From a phage, in NCBI GenBank assembly GCA_025832235.1, contig GCA_025832235.1_3649.1: a stretch of DNA of 64,000 nt. One strand, given 5' to 3'. Made by a program: the position numbers and the translations under genes. Each line of letters starts with the position of its first letter. The stretch's first letter is position 1. A model generated the notes under the pieces. That model was not told where the DNA came from. It searched no databases and saw only the letters and a program-made list of their open reading frames with translations. This document shows, in pieces, positions 2,499 through 44,462 of the stretch.

Positions 2499-3434
2499 AT
2501 GACAAATGAGGAACGTATGATGAAGTATTTTAATGCAGACGACCTAGTTGACAAAGGTCTTGTAACCAGCAGATATTACCCAGATCTTGGGTTAAAGATC
2601 TATAAATATGCCAGAAAAGTATTCTACAACAACTTATGGCATTTGTCTCCTCGATTACTGGAGTGCCGAGGCATTGTTGTCGGTAATGAAGGAAATGTTG
2701 TGGCATGGCCCTTCACAAAAGTGTTTAACTTGGGAGAAAACTCCACCAACCTGCCTGACAATAAGCTTGTGACGGCGGTAGAGAAAAAGAACGGATTCCT
2801 TGGTGTGGTGTCATCTCATAAAGGTGAACTATTGTTCTCAACAACCGGGTCTCTTGATTCCCCATATTGTAACCTTGCAAAGGAAACCATCCAGGAGCAA
2901 TGCGGTAATTTAGATCTTATCAAGAAGGTTATGGGCAATGAAAACATGACATTCATGTTTGAAATTTGTCACCCTTCAGATCCGCATATTGTTCAGGAAG
3001 ATCATGGCGCATATTTGATAGGTTGCAGATATAATGATTCTGGAATAATGCTACCAGAAGCCGCTTTAGATGGGATTGCCAAATACCTTGGTGCAAAACG
3101 TCCTCACACTGTGCGTGAAATTCCGTTCAGCTATGCAAAAGAGTTAGCTGCAGAAACAAGAGGTGAAGGATATATGATTCGTAAGCCTTACTACCCTTAT
3201 GATCTGCAGTTGAAGATCAAGTCTCCATACTATCTGGCACGAAAGGCCGTAATGAGGGGTAAAGCTTGGAAGATTTGGGATGATGATATCTTTAAACGTG
3301 TTGACGAAGAGTTTTACGGCATGGTAAACTTCATTCGTAACAACTACACAGAGGATGTATGGAACTGCCTCCTGGAGCAGGAACGCCGTGAGATACTTGA
3401 CTGCTATTTCCACAACGAGGACTATATGCAATGA
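2499..3434 (+). CDS. rnlA: RNA ligase 1 (T4 RnlA-like)
   Basis: ECRGI, KVFNLGEN and nucleotidyltransferase motif I EKKNG, motif IV EGYMIR, motif V KIK; resemblance to T4 Rnl1 from memory. Confidence 0.7.
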   Translation: MTNEERMMKYFNADDLVDKGLVTSRYYPDLGLKIYKYARKVFYNNLWHLSPRLLECRGIVVGNEGNVVAWPFTKVFNLGENSTNLPDNKLVTAVEKKNGFLGVVSSHKGELLFSTTGSLDSPYCNLAKETIQEQCGNLDLIKKVMGNENMTFMFEICHPSDPHIVQEDHGAYLIGCRYNDSGIMLPEAALDGIAKYLGAKRPHTVREIPFSYAKELAAETRGEGYMIRKPYYPYDLQLKIKSPYYLARKAVMRGKAWKIWDDDIFKRVDEEFYGMVNFIRNNYTEDVWNCLLEQERREILDCYFHNEDYMQ

Positions 3435-3789: not shown

Positions 3790-4551
3790 ATGCGACGACT
3801 GATTATTATCTCCGGTGCTGGTTTGAGCGCTGAATCTGGTATTCCCACTTTCCGATCTGGTAGCACTGCAATGTGGGAGAATTTCAGCATCGATGAGGTG
3901 TGCAACATCCACACCTTTGCCAAGAACTACTACAAGGTGCATGACTTTTACAATGCACGTCGTGTAGCTCTAGGCGGTGTTGAGCCTAACCTTGCACATC
4001 TTCGGATCGCTGAGTGGTATTCCCGCTGGTCTGGTCGTGTGATCAACCTTACCACCAATGTAGATGATTTGCTGGAGCGTGCGGGTGTAAAACATGAAGA
4101 TATTTTACATGTTCACGGGTATTTGCCAGAAATAGTCTATGAGGACGATGAAGGAAGTGACGTCATTAAGGACATTGGATACTCTGAGGTAGATGCAGGA
4201 AAGTATACCTGGGTTAAACCTAATGTGGTGTTCTTCGGAGAAGTAGCTCCGAAGTATACAGACATGTATGACCTGTTGACTTCTCTTACAAGCAATGATA
4301 TGGTTATCCTTGTAGGGTGTTCCAACACAGTTATCAATTTTAACTGGGAGCTATTCCCTGCCTGCAATAAGGGAACCAAACTACTGATCGTTAATAAATA
4401 CGACTCACAGCATCTAGAGGAGAATGGCATTTCACGTAGTGATATTTACCAGTATGAGGATCGCGGCATCCCAGTTTGGTTTAACGGTGCGGTTGATGCC
4501 TTCTCTGATAAAACATTCATTGAGACCGTAGAAAACTTTATGGAACTTTAA
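3790..4551 (+). CDS. Sir2-family NAD-dependent deacylase / ADP-ribosyltransferase
   Basis: sirtuin signature GAGLSAESGIPTFRSG near N-terminus, later FFGE; GAGGA RBS. Confidence 0.8.
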   Translation: MRRLIIISGAGLSAESGIPTFRSGSTAMWENFSIDEVCNIHTFAKNYYKVHDFYNARRVALGGVEPNLAHLRIAEWYSRWSGRVINLTTNVDDLLERAGVKHEDILHVHGYLPEIVYEDDEGSDVIKDIGYSEVDAGKYTWVKPNVVFFGEVAPKYTDMYDLLTSLTSNDMVILVGCSNTVINFNWELFPACNKGTKLLIVNKYDSQHLEENGISRSDIYQYEDRGIPVWFNGAVDAFSDKTFIETVENFMEL

Positions 4552-7894: not shown

Positions 7895-8656
7895 ATGACG
7901 ATACATTTCTTTTTTAATGATCACTACCCTTATTGGTACAAGGATGGTGATCTAATCTTTTGGAAACCTGGCTACAGTAGGAATGGAAATAGGGCGGGAC
8001 ACTACAACAAAAAGACTGGATATTTCCAAGTGTACAATAAGCTGACAAATGTTAAACGTGGCAGACATAGGGAAATTTTTGACATGTTTTACGGATGTGT
8101 CACAGATGCTTGGCATATTGATCATATTATCTCTAAGAAAAATTCTACTAACGGAGTGCCTGTAGACAAGATAGAAAACCTTCAAATGTTGAAGCCTTGG
8201 GATAACTACTGTAAGAGAGCCTTGGAAAATGTGCAAAGCAATAACACTTCTACAGTGACTGGTGTGGTATGGCTAAAAAGAGAGGGTAAGTGGAGGGCAA
8301 GTAGAAGGATAAATAGGGTAAATGTTAGGTTGGGAGATTTTGACACTTTCGAAGAGGCCAAGGCTAGGATTGAATGGTCAATAGCCAACCCGGAAGAGGC
8401 TTTAAAGATAGTTCCAAACCCGCACAAGAATAATATCCTGCCCGGTATTGATTGGTCTAAGAAAGATACCTGTTGGAGGGCACGAGATAATAAAGGAAGA
8501 AACTTAAGGTGCTTCAACGACAGGAAGTGGCTAAATCCATGGTGGGAGGCAGTTTGTGCAAGAAAGTCTTGGGAAGTAAACTGTCTCTACGGAGGGATGT
8601 CACTAACTGAATGGAAGTTATCCAGAGGCTATCCAAGACCTTGTGTTGAGGATTGA
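7895..8656 (+). CDS. HNH homing endonuclease with AP2-type DNA-binding domain
   Basis: HNH core WHIDHI...N...NLQML; AP2-like VTGVVWLKREGKWRASRRINRVNVRLGDFDTFEEA; free-standing between endolysin and next gene. Confidence 0.7.
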   Translation: MTIHFFFNDHYPYWYKDGDLIFWKPGYSRNGNRAGHYNKKTGYFQVYNKLTNVKRGRHREIFDMFYGCVTDAWHIDHIISKKNSTNGVPVDKIENLQMLKPWDNYCKRALENVQSNNTSTVTGVVWLKREGKWRASRRINRVNVRLGDFDTFEEAKARIEWSIANPEEALKIVPNPHKNNILPGIDWSKKDTCWRARDNKGRNLRCFNDRKWLNPWWEAVCARKSWEVNCLYGGMSLTEWKLSRGYPRPCVED

Positions 8657-30978: not shown

Positions 30979-31212
30979 ATGAAAGTTAAATTTCTTACAG
31001 ATTTAGGGTACCCTTCCTTGGTTGACTGTGTTGGTAAAATTGTGGAAGCAAAACGGCTATCTGCAAACGAGAATGTTGTCCTGGTTAAAGGGAAGGATTT
31101 ACTAGCTGCAGGTGCAGAGTCTGGCAGGATCTCTCCTGATTATATGTATTACCTATCTTTAAGTAATCTGCCAGAGCGAGGCGGTAAAGGCCTTGAAGTT
31201 GTGGAGGAGTGA
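30979..31212 (+). CDS. small acidic protein, family A member
   Basis: MKVKFL start, VVLVKGKDLLAAGAESG core, C-terminal EVVEE. Confidence 0.5.
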   Translation: MKVKFLTDLGYPSLVDCVGKIVEAKRLSANENVVLVKGKDLLAAGAESGRISPDYMYYLSLSNLPERGGKGLEVVEE

Positions 31213-32414: not shown

Positions 32415-32881
32415 CGATGTTTGTTAAATATGTAAAAACGTGCCTCAACAGTCTTGGCAGAGAGCATTGGTACACCTTGCTTGAAAAAGGGGAAATTTTA
32501 ACAAAATCTGGAAAGATAACTTTGATACCTCTTGATAGTAAAGGTAAAGACCCGTCACGACTTGTTATAGATGATTACGTTACAGGTGTGACGTTCGAGG
32601 TCTCTGTGGAGAGGTTAATACGCAGAGCTGGCGGCCCTTATGACCGAAGAGAGTATGTTTTCGATTCCGTTACAGAGATGGGGGAGCATCCGTCTTTAAT
32701 GTTCAGGATGGTAATCAGAGATATGAGGTCATCTATAGATAGGATCGTAAAGGACATTAAGGAACCTTTTAGAGTAAAAGTTAAGAAGTTTTTCGATTCT
32801 AAGATTAACATACTCGCCGTTGCACTAGGTGTAGTTCAACTTCTGTTAATTTTGCACTATTTTGAACTACTATTTAAGTAG
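32411..32881 (+). CDS. hypothetical protein with C-terminal TM helix
   Basis: C-terminal ILAVALGVVQLLLILHYF. Confidence 0.45.
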   Translation: MTMFVKYVKTCLNSLGREHWYTLLEKGEILTKSGKITLIPLDSKGKDPSRLVIDDYVTGVTFEVSVERLIRRAGGPYDRREYVFDSVTEMGEHPSLMFRMVIRDMRSSIDRIVKDIKEPFRVKVKKFFDSKINILAVALGVVQLLLILHYFELLFK

Positions 32882-34362: not shown

Positions 34363-34646
34363 TAATGAAAAAGATTAACAGTAGTGAAGTCGAGTTTAAA
34401 CTTGTCGGAAAAGGCACTTACTGGGAAGTTCGTCAAAAGGTATATTTGTTCGGTCTTATTCCTTACTGGTCTAAATTCTACTGGGGAGCTAACGAGTGGG
34501 GAAGATACGCCACCAAATCAATGGCACTTATTGGTATAGCAGAGTACATTGCAGCCAGAGATAGGGTTGGAGACACTTATTACTATACTGCGGACGATAT
34601 TCGTAACAGTGTTTACGTCCCACAACCACCTGATGGAGACCGTTGA
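34359..34646 (+). CDS. hypothetical protein
   Basis: ORF. Confidence 0.45.
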   Translation: MIMKKINSSEVEFKLVGKGTYWEVRQKVYLFGLIPYWSKFYWGANEWGRYATKSMALIGIAEYIAARDRVGDTYYYTADDIRNSVYVPQPPDGDR

Positions 34647-34870
34647 TGAAAGTTAAAGTTTTAGATTCGAGCTTCTATATTGGTCAGGAGCCCTTAGTGG
34701 GGAAAGTGTTTACTGCTGTCCCTAACGAAGATTACCCCGACCTTTTAAAAATAAAAGGGGCAGATCTTATTGCCGCTGGTGCATCTCAGGAATGCTTTGA
34801 CAGTCAGTGGACCTACAACTTTGCCCTAGGTGAGGATGTAGAGATAGTGGAGGACAATCATGAAGGTTAA
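34643..34870 (+). CDS. small acidic protein, family A (cassette copy 1, gene 1)
   Basis: MMKVKVLD...LLKIKGADLIAAGASQ...VEIVED. Confidence 0.5.
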   Translation: MMKVKVLDSSFYIGQEPLVGKVFTAVPNEDYPDLLKIKGADLIAAGASQECFDSQWTYNFALGEDVEIVEDNHEG

Positions 34871-35114
34871 AATTCTTGATTCTAACGTCTACTTGGGACA
34901 ATCCTTCCTGAAGGGAAAGGTCGTTCCTGCGGTATACTTTGAAGGGTTGCCGTGGGATGATCCTGTTCGGCAACATCACAGTTATGTAGGCCACAACGTA
35001 GTGTTTATCTTAGGAGCAGACCTGATCACCGCTGGTGCACCTGAATATTATTTCGGGGAAGAGTCCTATTATGCCTTTGGGGTAGGGTCAGATGCAAATA
35101 TTGTAGAGCTGTGA
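34860..35114 (+). CDS. small acidic protein, family A (cassette copy 1, gene 2)
   Basis: MKVKILD...FILGADLITAGAPE...ANIVEL. Confidence 0.5.
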   Translation: MKVKILDSNVYLGQSFLKGKVVPAVYFEGLPWDDPVRQHHSYVGHNVVFILGADLITAGAPEYYFGEESYYAFGVGSDANIVEL

Positions 35115-35126
35115 TGGGTAACCGTT

Positions 35127-35525
35127 GTGAAAAATAAACTGTTTAAAGTTACAATGAAAATTCGCGGAGCTTGGAGCATAAAGCAAGGGCGTATTCCAGA
35201 ATTTGAGAAAGACTTCTACGTAGTCTCCACCTCGGAGGAGGCTGCATGCTGGCAAGCTGGCTATGCCTATGCAAGAACCTGGTACGAAGGATACCAGACT
35301 GGGGGCTATGACGGAGAAATTATCAGCAAGGGTGTAGAAGAAATTAATGTGTTGACAAGTGAAAAAGTTTTTGTTATAGTGCATCCAGATTCCAGAGTGA
35401 AGCATTACTGGAATGCCAGAACAAAAACTTGGACACCGTTTGCAGATTCTGCTACACCACTTTTAAACCAGAAAGCTCTTGACTCTGTCCCGAGCTATGG
35501 GGTTGTTGAAGAAAAGCTAAACTGA
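35127..35525 (+). CDS. family B protein (cassette copy 1, gene 3)
   Basis: KVFVIVHPDSRVKHYWNARTKTWTP matches paralogue at 37332; GTG start supported by alignment. Confidence 0.5.
   Translation: MKNKLFKVTMKIRGAWSIKQGRIPEFEKDFYVVSTSEEAACWQAGYAYARTWYEGYQTGGYDGEIISKGVEEINVLTSEKVFVIVHPDSRVKHYWNARTKTWTPFADSATPLLNQKALDSVPSYGVVEEKLN
35352..35380 (+). promoter_or_regulatory. sigma70-like promoter inside coding sequence
   Basis: TTGACA 35352-35357, 17 bp spacer, TATAGT 35375-35380. Confidence 0.45.
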
Positions 35526-35542
35526 AACAGTGGGGTACTAAC

Positions 35543-35833
35543 ATGATGGATTTAGTTCTGGACACTGATAACACCGGAGCGTTTAAAAAGGATGGTGTAA
35601 CAAGCGTTGACCAATCCTTCCCTGCCAAGATTGACTCAAAATGGACCTACAAGTTTGATGGAGAGATCTTCGCAAATGATGAGAAGGTTGTAGATGCTGC
35701 AGCCATTTTGAACGCTCTAGGGTACGACCCTGTGAATTCTTTGATCAAGGATCCTGTTGAGTTTGCAGAGTATGTTCGAAAAATGGCAGATCTTGCTGTG
35801 GATATTTTAAAAACTATCGACAACAATCTGTAA
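35543..35833 (+). CDS. hypothetical acidic protein
   Basis: ORF. Confidence 0.45.
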   Translation: MMDLVLDTDNTGAFKKDGVTSVDQSFPAKIDSKWTYKFDGEIFANDEKVVDAAAILNALGYDPVNSLIKDPVEFAEYVRKMADLAVDILKTIDNNL

Positions 35834-35839
35834 AAACTG

Positions 35840-35868
35840 TTGACACAACGCTTCAGATTTAGTATCAT
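35840..35868 (+). promoter_or_regulatory. sigma70-like promoter of hpf-like gene
   Basis: TTGACA 35840-35845, 17 bp spacer, TATCAT; followed by 5' UTR hairpin AGAGGG-tttggtt-CCCTCT and AAAAGGAA RBS. Confidence 0.55.
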
Positions 35869-35915
35869 TGTTTTCAAAGAGGGTTTGGTTCCCTCTTCTT
35901 TAAAAGGAACACGTT

Positions 35916-36233
35916 ATGCAAATTGAAATCACTGGCAACGTAGAAATCACTGAAGGTATGGTGTCTTTCATTTCCAACAAAATGTCTAAACTGGAGCGTT
36001 TGCACCCCTCTGCCAACTATGCACGTGTGAGTGTAAAAGTTGAAAATGATCACCAGGAAGTTATGGCGTTCATTTTTGACAATTCTGGAAAAGAAGTTAT
36101 TGCCAAGGCTAAAGGTAGTGATGCTTACGAGGCAACTGACCGTATGGTAGATGTTGCAGCACGTCAGCTGGCTAAATGCGGTGGAAAGAAAGGTAAGGGG
36201 AAAGGCAAAGTAAAGATTGACTTTGGAAAATGA
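35916..36233 (+). CDS. hpf: ribosome hibernation promoting factor / RaiA-family protein (short form)
   Basis: MQIEITGNVEITEGM...KLERL...VSVKVE...G.EVIAKAKGSDAYEATDRMVDVAARQLAK aligns along whole length with E. coli HPF as recalled; lysine-rich tail. Confidence 0.75.
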   Translation: MQIEITGNVEITEGMVSFISNKMSKLERLHPSANYARVSVKVENDHQEVMAFIFDNSGKEVIAKAKGSDAYEATDRMVDVAARQLAKCGGKKGKGKGKVKIDFGK

Positions 36234-36370
36234 GGTGCTACAATGGGTGTGATTAAGAAATTAGTCCCAAATGTAGAGATTGCATGCTTTGAAATTATGT
36301 TTGCAATCGCAGTTGTAGTTAATGTGTTAGGTTACGGCTATTAATATCAAATAATTGAGGAGACCTCTAA

Positions 36371-36640
36371 ATGAAAATTAAATTATTCAAAACTGAGCTG
36401 GCAGACAAAAACTGTGGACTGGTTGAAGGCATGATTGTTGAAGCACAACCAGTGGACTATATGAAGGTGGTTCGTGATGCCCTGGGTGAAGGTTTTGATC
36501 TGATGGAGCCAGCTCTGCGAGAAGATGTTATCGAGATGGCTAAAAAGCACACACCTGAAGGTTTGGTGGTGTTTGTTGCACCGGGTAACGGAGAAGAATT
36601 GATTGTAACTCCTGATGTGTATGAGATTGTAGAGGAATAA
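36371..36640 (+). CDS. small acidic protein (MKIK...EIVEE class)
   Basis: MKIKLFK...LVVFVAPGNGEELIVTPDVYEIVEE. Confidence 0.5.
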   Translation: MKIKLFKTELADKNCGLVEGMIVEAQPVDYMKVVRDALGEGFDLMEPALREDVIEMAKKHTPEGLVVFVAPGNGEELIVTPDVYEIVEE

Positions 36641-36731
36641 TCCTGCTTGGATTAGCATACTTCCTCGATAAGGAAGATTTGTAATTATTTGTGGGAAAGG
36701 AATCCCAATCTCTTACCAGAGGTGATACTAT

Positions 36732-36995
36732 ATGATTGTTTATTTTAAAACTTCAGGTGGATACCCTGATTCTCAAAGCTTGATCGGAAAAACGTGCACA
36801 GCATACTCACCTCTTGATGAGGAGGTAAGCGATATTCTACGAAATATGTATCGGATTGACCCCCAAGAAGCCTTTGATCAAAACCTTGTATTTGTCAAGG
36901 GTTCAGATATGAAGTCTTTGGGAGCATTCCCTGAAGCAGATGATGATGCCGTTTATTCGTTCATGACTCCTTTTGAAGCTATGGTTGTTGGGTGA
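36732..36995 (+). CDS. small acidic protein, family A (cassette copy 2, gene 1)
   Basis: LVFVKGSDMKSLGAFPEADDD. Confidence 0.5.
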   Translation: MIVYFKTSGGYPDSQSLIGKTCTAYSPLDEEVSDILRNMYRIDPQEAFDQNLVFVKGSDMKSLGAFPEADDDAVYSFMTPFEAMVVG

Positions 36996-36999
36996 TAAT

Positions 37000-37332
37000 A
37001 TGAAAGTACGCTTTATTGGTGAAACAATTCCTGTGCATCTCCGGTCTCCTGAGGATTCTGCAGATCTTGCATCTCAAAAGGCGAGAGGTTATGATAAGAA
37101 AGTAACCTCAACCGATGTAGTGCTTGAGGCTACCAGTCTACCTGACCCTGCTGCATTCTTTAATCATTATGGGTACTATTTCAGCAATCTGATGAATATC
37201 GGTGAGCTTGTGTTTATTAGTGGTGGAGAGATTGTTAGCAAGCTTGGCGGCGATCCAGATGTCTTTCATGAAACCTGTCCTTTTGCATTTGTGGTAGGTT
37301 CAGATGTGGAAGTTATTGAGGAGGTGCGGTAA
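37000..37332 (+). CDS. small acidic protein, family A (cassette copy 2, gene 2)
   Basis: MKVRFIGE...FVVGSDVEVIEE; ATG 37000 just after upstream stop. Confidence 0.5.
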   Translation: MKVRFIGETIPVHLRSPEDSADLASQKARGYDKKVTSTDVVLEATSLPDPAAFFNHYGYYFSNLMNIGELVFISGGEIVSKLGGDPDVFHETCPFAFVVGSDVEVIEEVR

Positions 37333-37727
37333 TGGTAAGCCTATACCGTGTTGAGTATAGCTCAGATACTGTATACAACGTAAGAAGCAAAGATCGCAGC
37401 GACAGAGTGCAAGAAATGTATGTTCTTGCCGACAGTCCGTTATCTGCAGCGTTCAAGGCAGGGGCTCTTGCATCTCGTTGGAAATTTGAAGGGGGATCTT
37501 TCTATGAAGAAACCCTTGAAGATTCTGTTGTTATTTCTTCTGTAGAGGTTTCAGACGACTACGAAGGGAAAAAGTTCGTAATGCGGCACCCACACAGCAA
37601 CATTGCGTACTACTGGGATGTTCTGAACAACGAGTGGACCCCAGATCTTCAGAAGGCTACTGTGCTAACACCGTTTTTGGCAGATAAGTTCCCACCAGAA
37701 GGTAATTTATCCGCACTGTTTCAGTAA
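37332..37727 (+). CDS. family B protein (cassette copy 2, gene 3)
   Basis: KKFVMRHPHSNIAYYWDVLNNEWTP, paralogue of 35127. Confidence 0.5.
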   Translation: MVSLYRVEYSSDTVYNVRSKDRSDRVQEMYVLADSPLSAAFKAGALASRWKFEGGSFYEETLEDSVVISSVEVSDDYEGKKFVMRHPHSNIAYYWDVLNNEWTPDLQKATVLTPFLADKFPPEGNLSALFQ

Positions 37728-37806: not shown

Positions 37807-38064
37807 ATGAAGATTAAATTGAAAAACCTTGAAACGGCAGAGATTCAGGACGGTGTTGATTTCCGTTCTAAAGATGGTGACATCTTAGAGGTAAATATTC
37901 CAACCTACGAGCTGATTAAAGGTTTTGGCAACGTTCCGGAAGAGGATATTACAGAAATTCTTATGATGTTGATTCTTGACGGAACTGTGTTTGTAGGTGA
38001 AGGTGAGAACGCTATTGCAATCCCAGGCCATTTTTATGAAGTAGTTGACGAAGAGGTGCTGTAA
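37807..38064 (+). CDS. small acidic protein
   Basis: ATG after AGGAGA RBS; MKIKLKNLE...YEVVDEEVL. Confidence 0.5.
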   Translation: MKIKLKNLETAEIQDGVDFRSKDGDILEVNIPTYELIKGFGNVPEEDITEILMMLILDGTVFVGEGENAIAIPGHFYEVVDEEVL

Positions 38065-38415
38065 ATGAAAGTAGAAATTACCGGTTTTGATGTGAATGTG
38101 GTTCCGGAAGATATTTTAGCTAAACTTCCAGAAGGTTTTGGTAACGGCGTTGTGGTGGATGCTGTTCCTCCTACCAAAGACATTCTGCTGCAGTATGGTG
38201 TAGCAGAGGAAGATGTCGATAAAGTTCTTACAATGATGGCAATCGATCGTGTTGTCGTTGTTAAAGGTCTCGATAATTTTGAGAGTGATCCCCTGATTAT
38301 TCGTGGAGATGACTACAAAATCATCGATAATGAAGGCCAAGAGTTCTATGAACCTTGTGCAGAAGATATTCTTAACTTATTACTGGAAGCAGGTACCGAA
38401 GAGGAGGACGAATAA
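38065..38415 (+). CDS. small acidic protein
   Basis: MKVEITGF...; acidic tail TEEEDE. Confidence 0.5.
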   Translation: MKVEITGFDVNVVPEDILAKLPEGFGNGVVVDAVPPTKDILLQYGVAEEDVDKVLTMMAIDRVVVVKGLDNFESDPLIIRGDDYKIIDNEGQEFYEPCAEDILNLLLEAGTEEEDE

Positions 38416-38744
38416 TGAAGATTGACCCGTTACTGAAGGCTCGTGCAGAAAAAGCGTACACCATTAAGCTGACCAACCTGGTTCCTACTTGTCATCCAGA
38501 TGTAGGTTGGCCTGAAGGTCTGGTAGAGGGGACTGTAACAGCTGCATACCTCCCTAACATCAAATACCTTATGGAAATCTTGGAGCTGGATGAGGAAACG
38601 GCAGAAGAGTTCCAGTTGGACATGAAACAAAGTGGGACTCTGGTTATTCACGGGTGGTATAATACTAAAGACGCAGAAGACCCTCTGGTAACTTCTAATC
38701 TGGCATATGAAATCTTAGGGCCTTTGAACCTGGAGGAAGACTAA
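38415..38744 (+). CDS. small acidic protein
   Basis: ORF, overlapping start/stop. Confidence 0.45.
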   Translation: MKIDPLLKARAEKAYTIKLTNLVPTCHPDVGWPEGLVEGTVTAAYLPNIKYLMEILELDEETAEEFQLDMKQSGTLVIHGWYNTKDAEDPLVTSNLAYEILGPLNLEED

Positions 38745-39031
38745 TGAAAGATCTGGTTAAGATTAAGATTAAAGATACCAATGGAGAACTCAGCCATTTT
38801 GGAATTAATGATGGTGACGAGCTGATCGCACACCTGCCTACCAAGGAGGTTGTAAGCAAAGCAGTTGCCGGAGAAGAAGCTGCAATGCAGGCTGCAGGTG
38901 TGGATGAAAACTATGTAGCTATGTGCATGTGCCGAGATCAGGTTGTTCTGTATAAAGCGTATCGACCAAACGGAGCCACGGAGTGGCTTGTATTCCGACC
39001 CGAAGGATATGAAATCTTAGAGGCACTATGA
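38744..39031 (+). CDS. small acidic protein
   Basis: ORF. Confidence 0.45.
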   Translation: MKDLVKIKIKDTNGELSHFGINDGDELIAHLPTKEVVSKAVAGEEAAMQAAGVDENYVAMCMCRDQVVLYKAYRPNGATEWLVFRPEGYEILEAL

Positions 39032-41507: not shown

Positions 41508-41723
41508 ATGAAGATAGAAATATTTGGTGGAGCTGACAACACTCGTGGCCTGATTTACCTTGAATTCGATGAATCATACCTGCCAGAGGTGTTAAATATA
41601 GACTCTGTTGCTGAGGCTTTGGGAGTAAACCCTAAAGAACTCCACTCTTGTGCTGAGATCGATGGTTGGGAAGAGACCATGAACATTGATTTCAGTGAAG
41701 TAGAGGATGAACCGCTGGACTGA
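41508..41723 (+). CDS. small acidic protein (MKIEI class)
   Basis: AGAGGAG RBS; last plus-strand gene before noncoding hub. Confidence 0.45.
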   Translation: MKIEIFGGADNTRGLIYLEFDESYLPEVLNIDSVAEALGVNPKELHSCAEIDGWEETMNIDFSEVEDEPLD

Positions 41724-42423
41724 CACACAATATTAGCTGCCCGGCTAAAGTGCTGGAAGCACCTATAACACATCTTTCAACTAAATTTCCTACCACCACA
41801 ATCACTTACCTCCCATACATGACTGTTTGCTTGTTTAGTGAGCAGTCATGCCTTGACATTCTTGCCTATCCTGATAAAATTAAGTTCTTCTCTTTTCTTT
41901 TACCGAGTAATTCGGGTTTTCTGTTCTCTTCGGTTTGAAGGGGTATGGAGATACACCTGAGTGAACAGGGTGAACAACCGAACCATTGGCTATGGCATTA
42001 GCATGGCGAAGCGGACGGGTGACGAAAGAGGGGCCGGAGGACACCAGTCACTGCCATATGATATATGGGTGATAACCTGAAGAGTCTGAATAAGTGTTTA
42101 AGTACCAGTCAGAGGAAAAGGTGAATGGTAGCCGAAGGGGGAGGGGGGTTTCTTGTATCTTTAATTTGTATATTATGTATACACTTGTAAACCAATTTCA
42201 TCTGAATCTGTTTACCACACAAAGTGGATAGAGACAAATATTACCTATTAAACTTGAATTATTTATAGAAAATACCACAACACCACTTAAGTCTTTGATT
42301 TTACACACAAATCTTACAGATATTCAACCTCCATATTTAACATACCTGTAACATATTCCATACTCTACCTGTCTGATCAATCTACCCAACCACATCCTTC
42401 ATATTTTCCCTGTCTGTACCACC

Positions 42424-42635
42424 CCTGCCCCGCCGGGAGTCCCGTCATATCTGGCTTTCCAGCAAATATCACACCCACAAATATCATTGCCTGAAGAGGG
42501 TTTCATCCCATAATACATGCCTTACCTGAAGAGCGCTTCATACACCACGTAAATTTTTTAATTGACCTGCAATTTTCCCGTCATGACCCCCTGCCCCGCC
42601 GGAGAGGTTGGCTTTTCCCACACAGACCTGAAGAG
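42424..42635. repeat. imperfect ~110-bp direct repeat pair plus four CCTGAAGAG copies
   Basis: CCTGCCCCGCCGG at 42424 and 42588; CCTGAAGAG at 42076, 42490, 42525, 42627. Confidence 0.6.
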
Positions 42636-43213
42636 TCAGCCAGAAATATCTGAACAGGCCCAATTCTACCACGATTTTGACCTGACCTACAGGAGTGCTG
42701 CCAGGCGGACGAAATGGGAATACTTCTCATTCTTATAACAATTCTCAAATATCAAGGCAGTGAGGCAAATTAATAGGCTAGGCCGTTCACACAGTGGCAC
42801 AACATTTGCAATCTATTTTGTGTGGGGGAATGAGAATACATATCATTGTGAGAACCATTATCATTACGGGCAATTTAACATAATACCCATTATGCGCACC
42901 ACTGGCGATACATACAGGGATTGATAACATGAGTTACTGTTTACGCATATAACAATTATATTTATTACTATTTGTGTGGGATATAGTTAGCAGCCGATAG
43001 ATTAGATATTGACCTGCGGACTTCTGACCGTCTAGACGTCTAAACGCCCACACAGCAAGGGTTATACATACATCGCTGAATGTAAACAGGGCCGCAAAAA
43101 TGCTACCATACCAGTTTGTAAATTTTCAATGCAGCACTTGACAAAGAGGAGAAAAACTTGTCTGACACCTTATACACTTTCGATACAATAACGACTGTTA
43201 TTATTTCATGTTT

Positions 43214-43300
43214 CACTGTTCACGTATAGATTGTTCCCGCATAGACTGTTTACGCCTGGATAGTTTACACCTTGACAGTTTACGCATAGATGATAAGCCA
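43214..43300. repeat. iteron-like tandem series of 15-16 bp repeats
   Basis: TAGAtTGTTcCCGC / TAGAcTGTTTACGC / TAGTTTACAC / GACAGTTTACGC in tandem. Confidence 0.6.
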
Positions 43301-43544
43301 TGCCATTCGTTTGCATGAAAACAATTAGCAAGTTAACAATTAACAAGTTAATAATATATGACATAATATAAAAGCAGGGCAACTATTATTAGATCTATAG
43401 TTGCCTTGCTTATTATGTCATGATTAACTGAATATAAGGCAACTATGATCTGATTAATAGATTGCAGACAAACTATCACGGGGGTGATGGTTACTGCTTT
43501 TATATTATGTCGCGACTCCGTCGCGCCATGCCATTCGTTTGCAT
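43297..43544. repeat. 20-bp perfect direct repeat GCCATGCCATTCGTTTGCAT flanking a nested palindrome cluster
   Basis: copies at 43297-43316 and 43525-43544; between them 18-bp perfect inverted repeat GACATAATATAAAAGCAG (43360-43377 / 43494-43511) enclosing GGCAACTAT/ATAGTTGCC palindromes. Confidence 0.65.
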
Positions 43545-44156
43545 AGTTGCCTTATTGTTACAGGTAAAACAATTACATTGTTAACTATTTCTTATCTTTC
43601 TCTTAGTCATCTAATGATTCCAGTCAGTATAGTTATGTGCAGTAAACATTAGACGACTAAAGATTTCTCTGATTATAGTAACCTATCGTGACAATTTCGA
43701 ACTGTTTACGAAAAATGTTGACACCTGGGCAGGTTTATGTTATGCAGTTTGTACGAATAATTATTTTGTACAGGTATTGACTATTCCGTTATTCTGTGGT
43801 TGGAATAAATACTTTGCAGGCTATAGAATGGTGATCGTACGTGGATTCTGAGATCTGTCGGCTATAGTTACACCCGATTTTTCACGTAGGACACGCTTTT
43901 TGGTTTGTGTAAGTGTATGACTTATAAGGGTTTTTAATTGTTGACAGTATACTGAAGATGTGCATCAGGTTAAATTTTGTGCAATAGCTGCATTACGTGC
44001 AATTTTGGGAGAGAAAACGGGTAAAAATAGCACCGCTACCACACAATGAAAGGTTATGCAATAGCTATTTTACATGTATATTTGTACAGTGTGCGGGATT
44101 GATGGCTCGTCAATTATTCCACTTGTCAGGTAGGGCCGTTTATGGTAGGAAAAGAG

Positions 44157-44184
44157 CAAACAAAAAGAAAGGGGCCTAAGCCCC
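44157..44184 (-). terminator. rho-independent terminator ending the minus-strand block
   Basis: minus strand GGGGC-ttag-GCCCC then TTTCTTTTTGTTTG. Confidence 0.6.
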
Positions 44185-44198
44185 TTGATAATGTTGTA

Positions 44199-44462
44199 TT
44201 ATTTGTTGCTCATCCAGTTTTCCCAAGCTGCCTGATAATCTGCCTCACTGCGGCGGATCTCTTCTTGTTCTTCAAGCCGGATCTCTTCTTCCAGGTACCC
44301 AAGGATGTCGGATTTTTTGGTCTGGCGTAACATCCAATCATCTTTTTTACGAGTAAAGATCTTGTACGCTTTCTCGCAAACCTCTTTTTTACTACCTTTT
44401 TGTACTTCAAGAACTTTGTAGGCCATGTACTGAACTAGTTTGAGCTGATCAAGACGTTTCAT
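44199..44462 (-). CDS. hypothetical protein
   Basis: AGAGGT RBS; 5' UTR hairpin GGGCC-AAAA-GGCCC upstream. Confidence 0.5.
   Translation of the reverse strand: MKRLDQLKLVQYMAYKVLEVQKGSKKEVCEKAYKIFTRKKDDWMLRQTKKSDILGYLEEEIRLEEQEEIRRSEADYQAAWENWMSNK

Follow-up and report, generated by a model that had tools for sequence, protein, structure and literature searches.

A 64,000-nucleotide stretch of phage DNA (contig GCA_025832235.1_3649.1 of NCBI GenBank assembly GCA_025832235.1), hereafter referred to as the window, carries a dense block of small + strand genes, twelve of which fall into three families of paralogues, named here A1, A2 and B. Five genes belong to A1, five to A2 and two to B. A three-gene unit, or cassette, is present twice, each time as A1-A1-B in the same order and orientation, at 34646/34860/35127 and at 36732/37000/37332, where genes are designated by their start positions; an earlier note, made by reading the letters of this DNA, had pointed out this unit. 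The evidence described below supports a picture in which A1, A2 and B are accessory genes, each maintained by its own selection and none a redundant copy of another. We hold the anatomy and the evolution of the families, as given here, with high confidence.

When an 8-kb segment around the cassettes was used as a query, 122 phage records were matched, 117 of them with at least 80% coverage. The best match was Escherichia phage MaxTheCat (Bas57, genus Vequintavirus), with 98.5% identity. On nucleotide similarity, the source genome of the window is that of a Vequintavirus (rV5-like) phage of E. coli. All of the open reading frames (ORFs) named in the earlier note are present on the + strand, and they match genes annotated in MaxTheCat and in rV5. 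In rV5 numbering, the genes considered here are ORF127, ORF140/141/142, ORF146, ORF147/148/149 and ORF150-153/154.

The first gene of cassette 1 is ORF140 (34646..34870, 74 residues), which represents the minimal core of the A1 fold and matches phrog_5009 with an expectation value (E) of 3e-38. Its start codon is ATG 34646 and not TTG 34643, and its end is overlapped by the start of the second gene, ORF141 (34860..35114, 84 residues, phrog_5009 E 1e-31). In cassette 2, the first gene is ORF147 (36732..36995, 87 residues), which has an insertion between strands 2 and 3 and matches a hidden Markov model (HMM) of A1 with E 4e-27. It is followed by ORF148 (37000..37332, 110 residues, A1 HMM E 3e-16), which has the longest insertion, starts at ATG 37000 and has a stop codon that overlaps the start of the B gene downstream. 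The fifth member, ORF127 (30979..31212, 77 residues), is a lone copy located 3.4 kb upstream of cassette 1. It had been proposed as a family member, and it is one, with a Smith-Waterman z-score of 13.9 against 34646, an A1 HMM E of 4e-28 and a phrog_5009 E of 8e-36. All five genes are on the + strand.

Pairwise Smith-Waterman comparisons, each with 300 shuffles, gave A1 z-scores of 23, 13.9, 8.7, 8.4, 6.1, 5.9 and 5.8, and none of the 300 shuffles reached the observed scores; the paralogues are more similar than shuffled controls. The highest score belongs to 34860 against 34646, and 37000 scored 8.7 against 34860 and 8.4 against 34646, while the link between 36732 and 37000 is weak (z 3.2). 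An HMM of A1 and its homologues retrieved exactly the five A1 genes among the 574 ORFs of the window (E 1e-35 to 3e-16), and the next ORF had an E of 0.9. The PHROGs database recovers part of this grouping. Its family phrog_5009, which has no known function, no fold on record and no Pfam model, is matched from end to end by 30979, 34646 and 34860 (E 1e-31 to 3e-38) and weakly by 36732 (E 1e-4); 37000 is tied to A1 by the HMM built in this analysis and not by phrog_5009. PHROGs files 36732 and 37000 as singleton families, phrog_13920 and phrog_13661, respectively. The core motif KGxDL[IL]AAGA, previously put forward as the mark of the family, is found in 30979, 34646 and 34860, but not in 36732 (VKGSDMKSLGA) or in 37000 (ISGGEIVSKLGG).

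The description of these proteins as small, mostly acidic, multi-copy and lacking a known domain was borne out. The isoelectric point (pI) ranges from 4.1 to 5.4 and is highest, at 5.4, in 30979, and the five A1 proteins have net charges of -1, -9, -5, -8 and -8. No Pfam family was matched at E <=1 by any member, nor was any match found in NCBIfam or in sequence searches of the PDB with shallow and deep profiles. Another resemblance to A1 can be seen in the gene that follows the B gene of cassette 1 (35543-35833), whose residues 31-38 read DSKWTYKF, compared with DSQWTYNF in 34646. A 27-nt DNA repeat of 78% identity is also found at 34797-34823, in the 34646 gene, and at 35631-35657, in this following gene. 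It may be a remnant of another A1 copy, with an HMM score that is not significant (E 3).

With 43 genes in the block, finding two A1 genes directly ahead of each B gene has a permutation probability of about 4e-5. The two cassettes resemble each other at the protein level only, with identities of 21-50%; there is no significant DNA similarity between them, and the sole match is one stretch of 26 nt. The duplication is therefore ancient. The order of the cassettes could suggest a plain en-bloc copy, but the z-scores of the A1 proteins across cassettes (8.7, 8.4, 5.8 and 4.5) have no position-wise pattern, which argues against it. Furthermore, 34646 and 34860 are mutually the closest paralogues, with 50% identity in the family alignment and 42% by blastp, so a later tandem duplication or gene conversion is required. 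The arrangement is best accounted for if a segment holding an A1(-A1)-B unit was duplicated long ago and cassette 1 later underwent a further tandem duplication or gene conversion.

Two 31-nt direct repeats on the + strand, 34756-34786 and 35012-35042, are 81% identical and encode GADLIxAGA in both of the tandem A1 genes of cassette 1. These repeats are likely the crossover site of natural hybrid genes. A 70-residue hybrid of 34646 and 34860 (P0015), joined at the GADLIxAGA repeat, occurs in three contigs of public assemblies; it stands in place of both genes in contigs L018 and L019, at 3001-3213 in each. In another variant from public assemblies, the first B gene is fused to the next gene. 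P0040 is, like P0015, a natural copy-number variant, and the segment 3001-3324 of contig L020 is also among the natural variants of cassette 1 genes. These hybrid and fusion variants may be real deletions or assembly artefacts.

Family B has two members. B1 (ORF142, 35127..35525, + strand) has 132 residues when read from GTG 35127 and matches phrog_7379 with E 1e-73, and B2 (ORF149, 37332..37727, + strand) has 131 residues and matches it with E 2e-66. Over an alignment of 112 residues, the two proteins share 27% identity (blastp E 4e-11), and phrog_7379, whose function is not known, already groups both genes. Annotations differ in the start of B1, which is GTG 35127 in rV5 and ATG 35154 in MaxTheCat. 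The GTG is favoured, as the N-terminus it gives aligns with B2 and with the B2 orthologue of a metagenomic contig, L015, described below; neither site has a strong ribosome-binding site. The C-terminal region contains the conserved motif KxF[VI]xxHPxSxxxxYWxxxxxxW. Among 119 matching phage records, B2 is at least 97.7% identical in all of the matches listed, and the copy number of B1 is nearly fixed within the genus (236 places across 119 records). A word-indexed search returned six relatives of B, and IMG/VR held three loci, all of them close; tblastn at E <=5 found B in Vequintavirus records only. A likeness to a protein of Listeria phage A118, noted for family B in the old rV5 record, was not reproduced.

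The genes at 36371, 37807 and 38065 had been placed with A1 in one single expanded family. They form instead, with 38415 and 38744, a separate family of five, A2. The first member, ORF146 (36371..36640, + strand, 89 residues), was recovered by a leave-one-out A2 HMM with E 1.2e-3 among the 574 ORFs and has a z-score of 5.8 against 37807. The other four (ORF150-153/154) are + strand genes in tandem, at 37807-38064, 38065-38415, 38415-38744 and 38744-39031, separated by gaps of 0 or -1 and recovered with E 3e-6, 6e-8, 1e-2 and 2e-6, respectively. Leave-one-out HMMs thus recover every member (E 6e-8 to 1e-2), the weakest being 38415, and the Smith-Waterman z-scores within A2 are 7.6, 5.9, 5.8, 4.8 and 4.5 (300 shuffles). 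In PHROGs, the A2 genes are singletons. In rV5 (L014, 9526-9796, ORF153/154), the orthologous sequence of 38744-39031 is broken up into a pair of overlapping ORFs, with two gap positions in the DNA alignment; this is put down to a frameshift or a sequencing error in rV5.

A union of A1 and A2 was considered and rejected as unproven. In a column-shuffle null, 0 of 150 shuffles reached the observed A1-A2 score, but on ranking against real background ORFs the signal was reduced to a common N-terminal strand. Comparison by hhalign gave a probability of 1.4% with shallow profiles and 16% with deep ones, with only the N-terminal strand aligned, and the A2 genes scored on the A1 profile could not be separated from background ORFs. 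A1 and A2 are therefore not joined by sequence. The gene at 41508, also named as a member of the expanded family, is outside both and was recovered by neither HMM (best E 0.096). Its MKIEI start, an instance of the MK[IV][KE][IVL] pattern that was proposed as a family mark, is also found in an unrelated gene that resembles the ribosome hibernation factor HPF.

The structure of A1 was predicted with AlphaFold2 from an alignment of 19 rows, with a predicted local distance difference test (pLDDT) of 92 and a predicted template-modelling score (pTM) of 0.79. The model consists of five strands and a short helix and is confidently predicted to be an SH3-like small β-barrel. It has the closed small barrel of antiparallel strands that superposes on SH3 and KOW domains, and its nearest structural neighbours are the KOW domains of Spt5 and SH3-like ribosomal proteins; a Foldseek search of the model against the PDB gave nothing significant. 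Among the predicted viral structures of BFVD, its neighbours come from many phages and are small proteins that have not been characterised, with template-modelling scores (TM) of 0.7-0.83. One of the top neighbours of the 34646 model (TM 0.79) is an 87-residue protein of Shigella phage CM1, also a Vequintavirus, which is presumably the orthologue of 36732. The known barrels of this class (the KOW domains of Spt5 and NusG, PsaE, SH3 domains, the C-terminal domain of retroviral integrase, ribosomal L21e and L24) have no sequence relation to A1. Unlike them, A1 is a stand-alone phage protein, in which strand 3 is followed by a conserved GxELIxxGA helix peculiar to the family and the C-terminal strand is acidic. 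The KOW motif that defines the NusG-Spt5 family (PF00467) is absent, A1 having no Pfam match.

When 1.84 billion representatives were searched exhaustively with HMMER, 66 clusters, defined at 50% identity, had a representative that matched A1 at E <=1e-3, and with them about 60 further A1 lineages in unrelated phages came to light. Most of these relatives consist of the A1 domain alone, are 63-90 residues long and follow the consensus MKVKLLxxGGYxGMxxVxGKVVxA...GxELIxAGA...YxF...ExEVIEE. Tandem fusions of two or three domains also occur, P0096, P0098, P0138 and P0144 being multi-domain forms. Among 61 relatives tested, 60 match phrog_5009, and at E <=0.01 none has a Pfam match except one that is fused to DUF3310. 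The median pI of the wider family is 4.5 (range 4.05-8.93) and the median net charge is -6. The relatives P0098, P0101 and P0104 are represented by contigs of 1-2 kb only.

The genomic settings of these relatives differ; in a lambdoid prophage, in a Krischvirus phage and in a phage of 42.5 kb, small unannotated ORFs surround them. In lambdoid E. coli prophages (P0031) and in phage mEp554 (gp56), a sequence relative of A1 (HMM E ~1e-24) is located between the antiterminator gene Q and the holin gene, in the interval that leads from Q to the lysis genes. In the T4-like Krischvirus Phi1, the relative is ORF073 (tblastn E 9e-4), among small unannotated ORFs near dam. The RB49 protein Q76ZG7 is a structural neighbour only, with 13% identity and a TM of 0.71. 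In an unrelated phage of 42.5 kb, an A1 relative belongs to the replication module, between a primase-polymerase gene and genes for AAA_24, DUF669 and helicase proteins. This phage (L010) has two A1 genes on opposite strands, at 3922-4113 (-) and 8001-8213 (+), so A1 in multiple copies is not unique to Vequintavirus. The Krischvirus and lambdoid genomes examined have one copy, compared with two in the 42.5-kb phage and, in Vequintavirus, five together with the lineage-specific B. Families A2 and B did not turn up outside Vequintavirus-like phages.

The family genes were compared with those of L008, a divergent Vequintavirus contig of 80-90% nucleotide identity, and all that could be aligned gap-free have a ratio of nonsynonymous to synonymous polymorphism (pN/pS) of 0.05-0.18. 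Every such copy is under purifying selection. A more distant relative, the 128-kb metagenomic contig L015 (28-87% protein identity), retains the complete A1 and A2 sets, of five genes each, as well as B2, in an unchanged order that includes cassette 2, with B2 at 40% identity, so the paralogues predate its split. In L015, an extra gene at 8092-8388, which matches Pfam PF27050 (Phage_P22_Y8K6), lies between B2 and the A2 genes. The junction of B2 and A2 is therefore a place of gene gain, and in the window it is the site of a promoter, P150. In the sister genera Seunavirus and Mydovirus, which share the synteny of ClpP and methyltransferase genes, A1, A2 and B are all absent from the syntenic block.

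The block that contains the three families can be described as the accessory tail of a long rightward unit. The unit carries nucleotide-metabolism and replication genes, then a ClpP-like protease and a methyltransferase, and then about 43 small genes. Most of these are packed end to end or run into one another, stop codon overlapping start codon. About half of all the genes of the block have a pI <5. In the rV5 genome paper, the rightward unit is given as 'genes 82-163', and no paralogues are mentioned there. The block ends at an ORF-poor stretch, 41.75-44.2 kb, which faces a convergent - strand block. This segment of about 2.5 kb (41750-44200), between the convergent + and - units, lacks convincing ORFs, while sites resembling promoters and terminators are numerous. 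Neither a tRNA nor an Rfam family was detected in it, and it is probably the segment boxed as 'non-coding' in the rV5 paper. Scans of the cassette region for tRNA genes and Rfam families found nothing either. The region is also matched, at >=90% identity, by 18 GenBank records that bear the name 'Campylobacter phage' (host C. jejuni). The one listed is 97.2% identical, and some of them are partial genomes; contamination or mislabelling is likely.

The earlier note had given these genes promoters of their own. This is true of gene blocks and not of individual genes, and no clear promoter could be assigned to either cassette. Two strong sigma-70-like promoters, both annotated in the rV5 record, are found on the + strand. 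P144 (35840..35868), TTGACA-17-TATCAT with 11 of 12 matches, is ahead of an HPF-like gene between the cassettes, and P150 (37746..37774), TTGACA-17-AATAAT with an extended -10 (TG), is ahead of the block of four A2 genes. The HPF-like gene (35916-36233) is a homologue of the ribosome hibernation factor (HPF / sigma-54 modulation protein), and its leader contains a GC-rich hairpin near 35877-35897 (AAGAGGG...CCCTCTT). We found no Vequintavirus transcriptome in the literature. Upstream of cassette 1, in the same block of small genes, the gene at 32417-32881 (rV5 ORF133) encodes a protein of 154 residues with a hydrophobic C-terminus that is annotated as 'possible structural protein', and its product was among the predominant proteins in the virion mass spectrometry of the rV5 paper. 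The main text of that paper names gp133 from the block in this context and none of ORF127, ORF140-142 or ORF146-153. Assignment to known virion families, on which the proposal of the earlier note could have failed, was not found for A1, A2 or B, as there was no structural match in PHROGs, Pfam or NCBIfam.

We propose that the A1 proteins are small protein-binding modules that would work in pairs. Such action in pairs is inferred from the adjacent genes of the cassettes and from the fused tandem domains found elsewhere. Each module would bind a host or phage protein. The loop that joins strands 2 and 3 varies, with insertions of 0 to ~47 residues, and would determine the specificity. B would be a translationally coupled partner or client in the Vequintavirus lineage, and each paralogue would retain a distinct, non-redundant target. 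The genes would be dispensable accessory modulators of infection and not core machinery. As a mechanism, the paired protein-binding module is a tentative suggestion drawn from sequence and a structural model, and it may well be wrong. The whole reading, in which anatomy, evolution and mechanism are blended, has somewhat less than an even chance of being right.

Several results weigh against this proposal. No homology ties any of the three families to a function, and the evidence for an A1-A1 interaction consists of gene adjacency and fusions only. The AlphaFold2 model of B, made from a six-row alignment, was unusable (pLDDT 42, pTM 0.32). In L015, the slot of B1 is occupied by an unrelated gene of 96 residues, and A1 is found without B everywhere else, so B is not an obligate partner. 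Furthermore, the strong purifying selection between orthologues is unlike the signature of a fast arms race. A role in host takeover or anti-defence, as suggested previously, is possible; we found no anti-defence paper on these genes. In a more specific version, A1 would be an SH3-like 'inhibitor scaffold' used across phages, whose paired domains would grip a host protein, for instance one involved in defence or stress. In Vequintaviruses, A1, A2 and B would have grown into an arsenal of 10-12 non-redundant host-targeting modules, with a heteromeric A1-A1-B complex. This version is unlikely.

The location of the genes, at the end of a unit that carries replication and nucleotide-metabolism genes, would also agree with a phage-internal role, in which their small products would assist, as accessory subunits or chaperones, the enzymes of replication, recombination or nucleotide metabolism that are encoded upstream. 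The A1 relative in the replication module of the 42.5-kb phage, the fusion to DUF3310, a nucleotide-kinase-like domain, and the strong purifying selection are consistent with it. However, the sister genera have the same replication genes but no A1, A2 or B gene in the syntenic block, the lambdoid homologue sits between Q and the lysis genes, and natural deletion and hybrid variants exist. We consider such a role improbable. The same degree of doubt applies to a role as modulators of transcription or translation, in which A1 would behave as KOW, ribosomal-protein or Sm-type barrels do and attach to RNA polymerase, to ribosomes or to RNA, allied with the HPF-like gene. The best structural neighbours of A1 and the presence of that gene, with its own promoter, between the cassettes speak for this. 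On the other hand, acidic proteins bind RNA poorly, the adjacency of the HPF-like gene is a single case amid unrelated small genes, and A1 relatives elsewhere have no such neighbour.

The earlier note had thought of DNA mimics. These would be anti-restriction or anti-defence proteins in the style of T7 Ocr, ArdA and T4 Arn, with acidic surfaces that imitate DNA and so capture restriction enzymes and further DNA-binding proteins of defence. The likeness to these proteins is that they are small, acidic and phage-encoded. Most members have a pI of 4.1-4.8, A2 proteins contain up to 25% aspartate and glutamate, the acidity extends to the wider A1 family, and the genes are small, multi-copy and in an accessory region. 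However, no sequence or fold match to the Ocr, ArdA and Arn proteins was found, there being no Pfam match even at E <=1, and the SH3-like barrel predicted for A1 is compact, unlike the elongated, charged form of a mimic. The charge of the families is also not uniformly extreme, A1 ranging from -1 to -9, with a pI of 5.4 in 30979 and of 8.9 in some relatives. Since about half of the block genes have a pI <5, acidity does not discriminate. The BASEL study reports that Vequintavirinae are exceptionally susceptible to restriction-modification systems (PMC8594841), which argues against this function as well. DNA mimicry is thus disfavoured, and we give it little credence. Lastly, the view that the families are chance resemblances or non-functional ORFs, an artefact of composition, to which the missing DNA similarity between the cassettes and weak links such as 36732 with 37000 (z 3.2) and 38415 (leave-one-out E 1e-2) could lend support, is effectively refuted by the shuffle controls, the HMM recovery, the PHROG matches, the conserved order in L015, the pN/pS values and the confident fold prediction.

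Among phages of E. coli, those of the rV5 type are isolated particularly often, and they are candidates for use in therapy; about 40 genes of this block are without annotation. What is new here is that twelve of them fall into three families, that A1 gains a confident predicted fold and a distribution across many phage groups, and that the paralogues are individually maintained by selection. The record of phrog_5009 describes neither the five-gene paralogy nor the fold and cassette of A1, and we found no mention of the PHROG identifiers of these families in the literature. The duplication itself is an ordinary accessory-gene expansion of large phages and not a new kind of system. The outcome is a compact, testable set of targets. 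If it is true that A1 is a host-binding module, the same domain could be recognised in lambdoid prophages, in T4-like phages and in many metagenomic phages.

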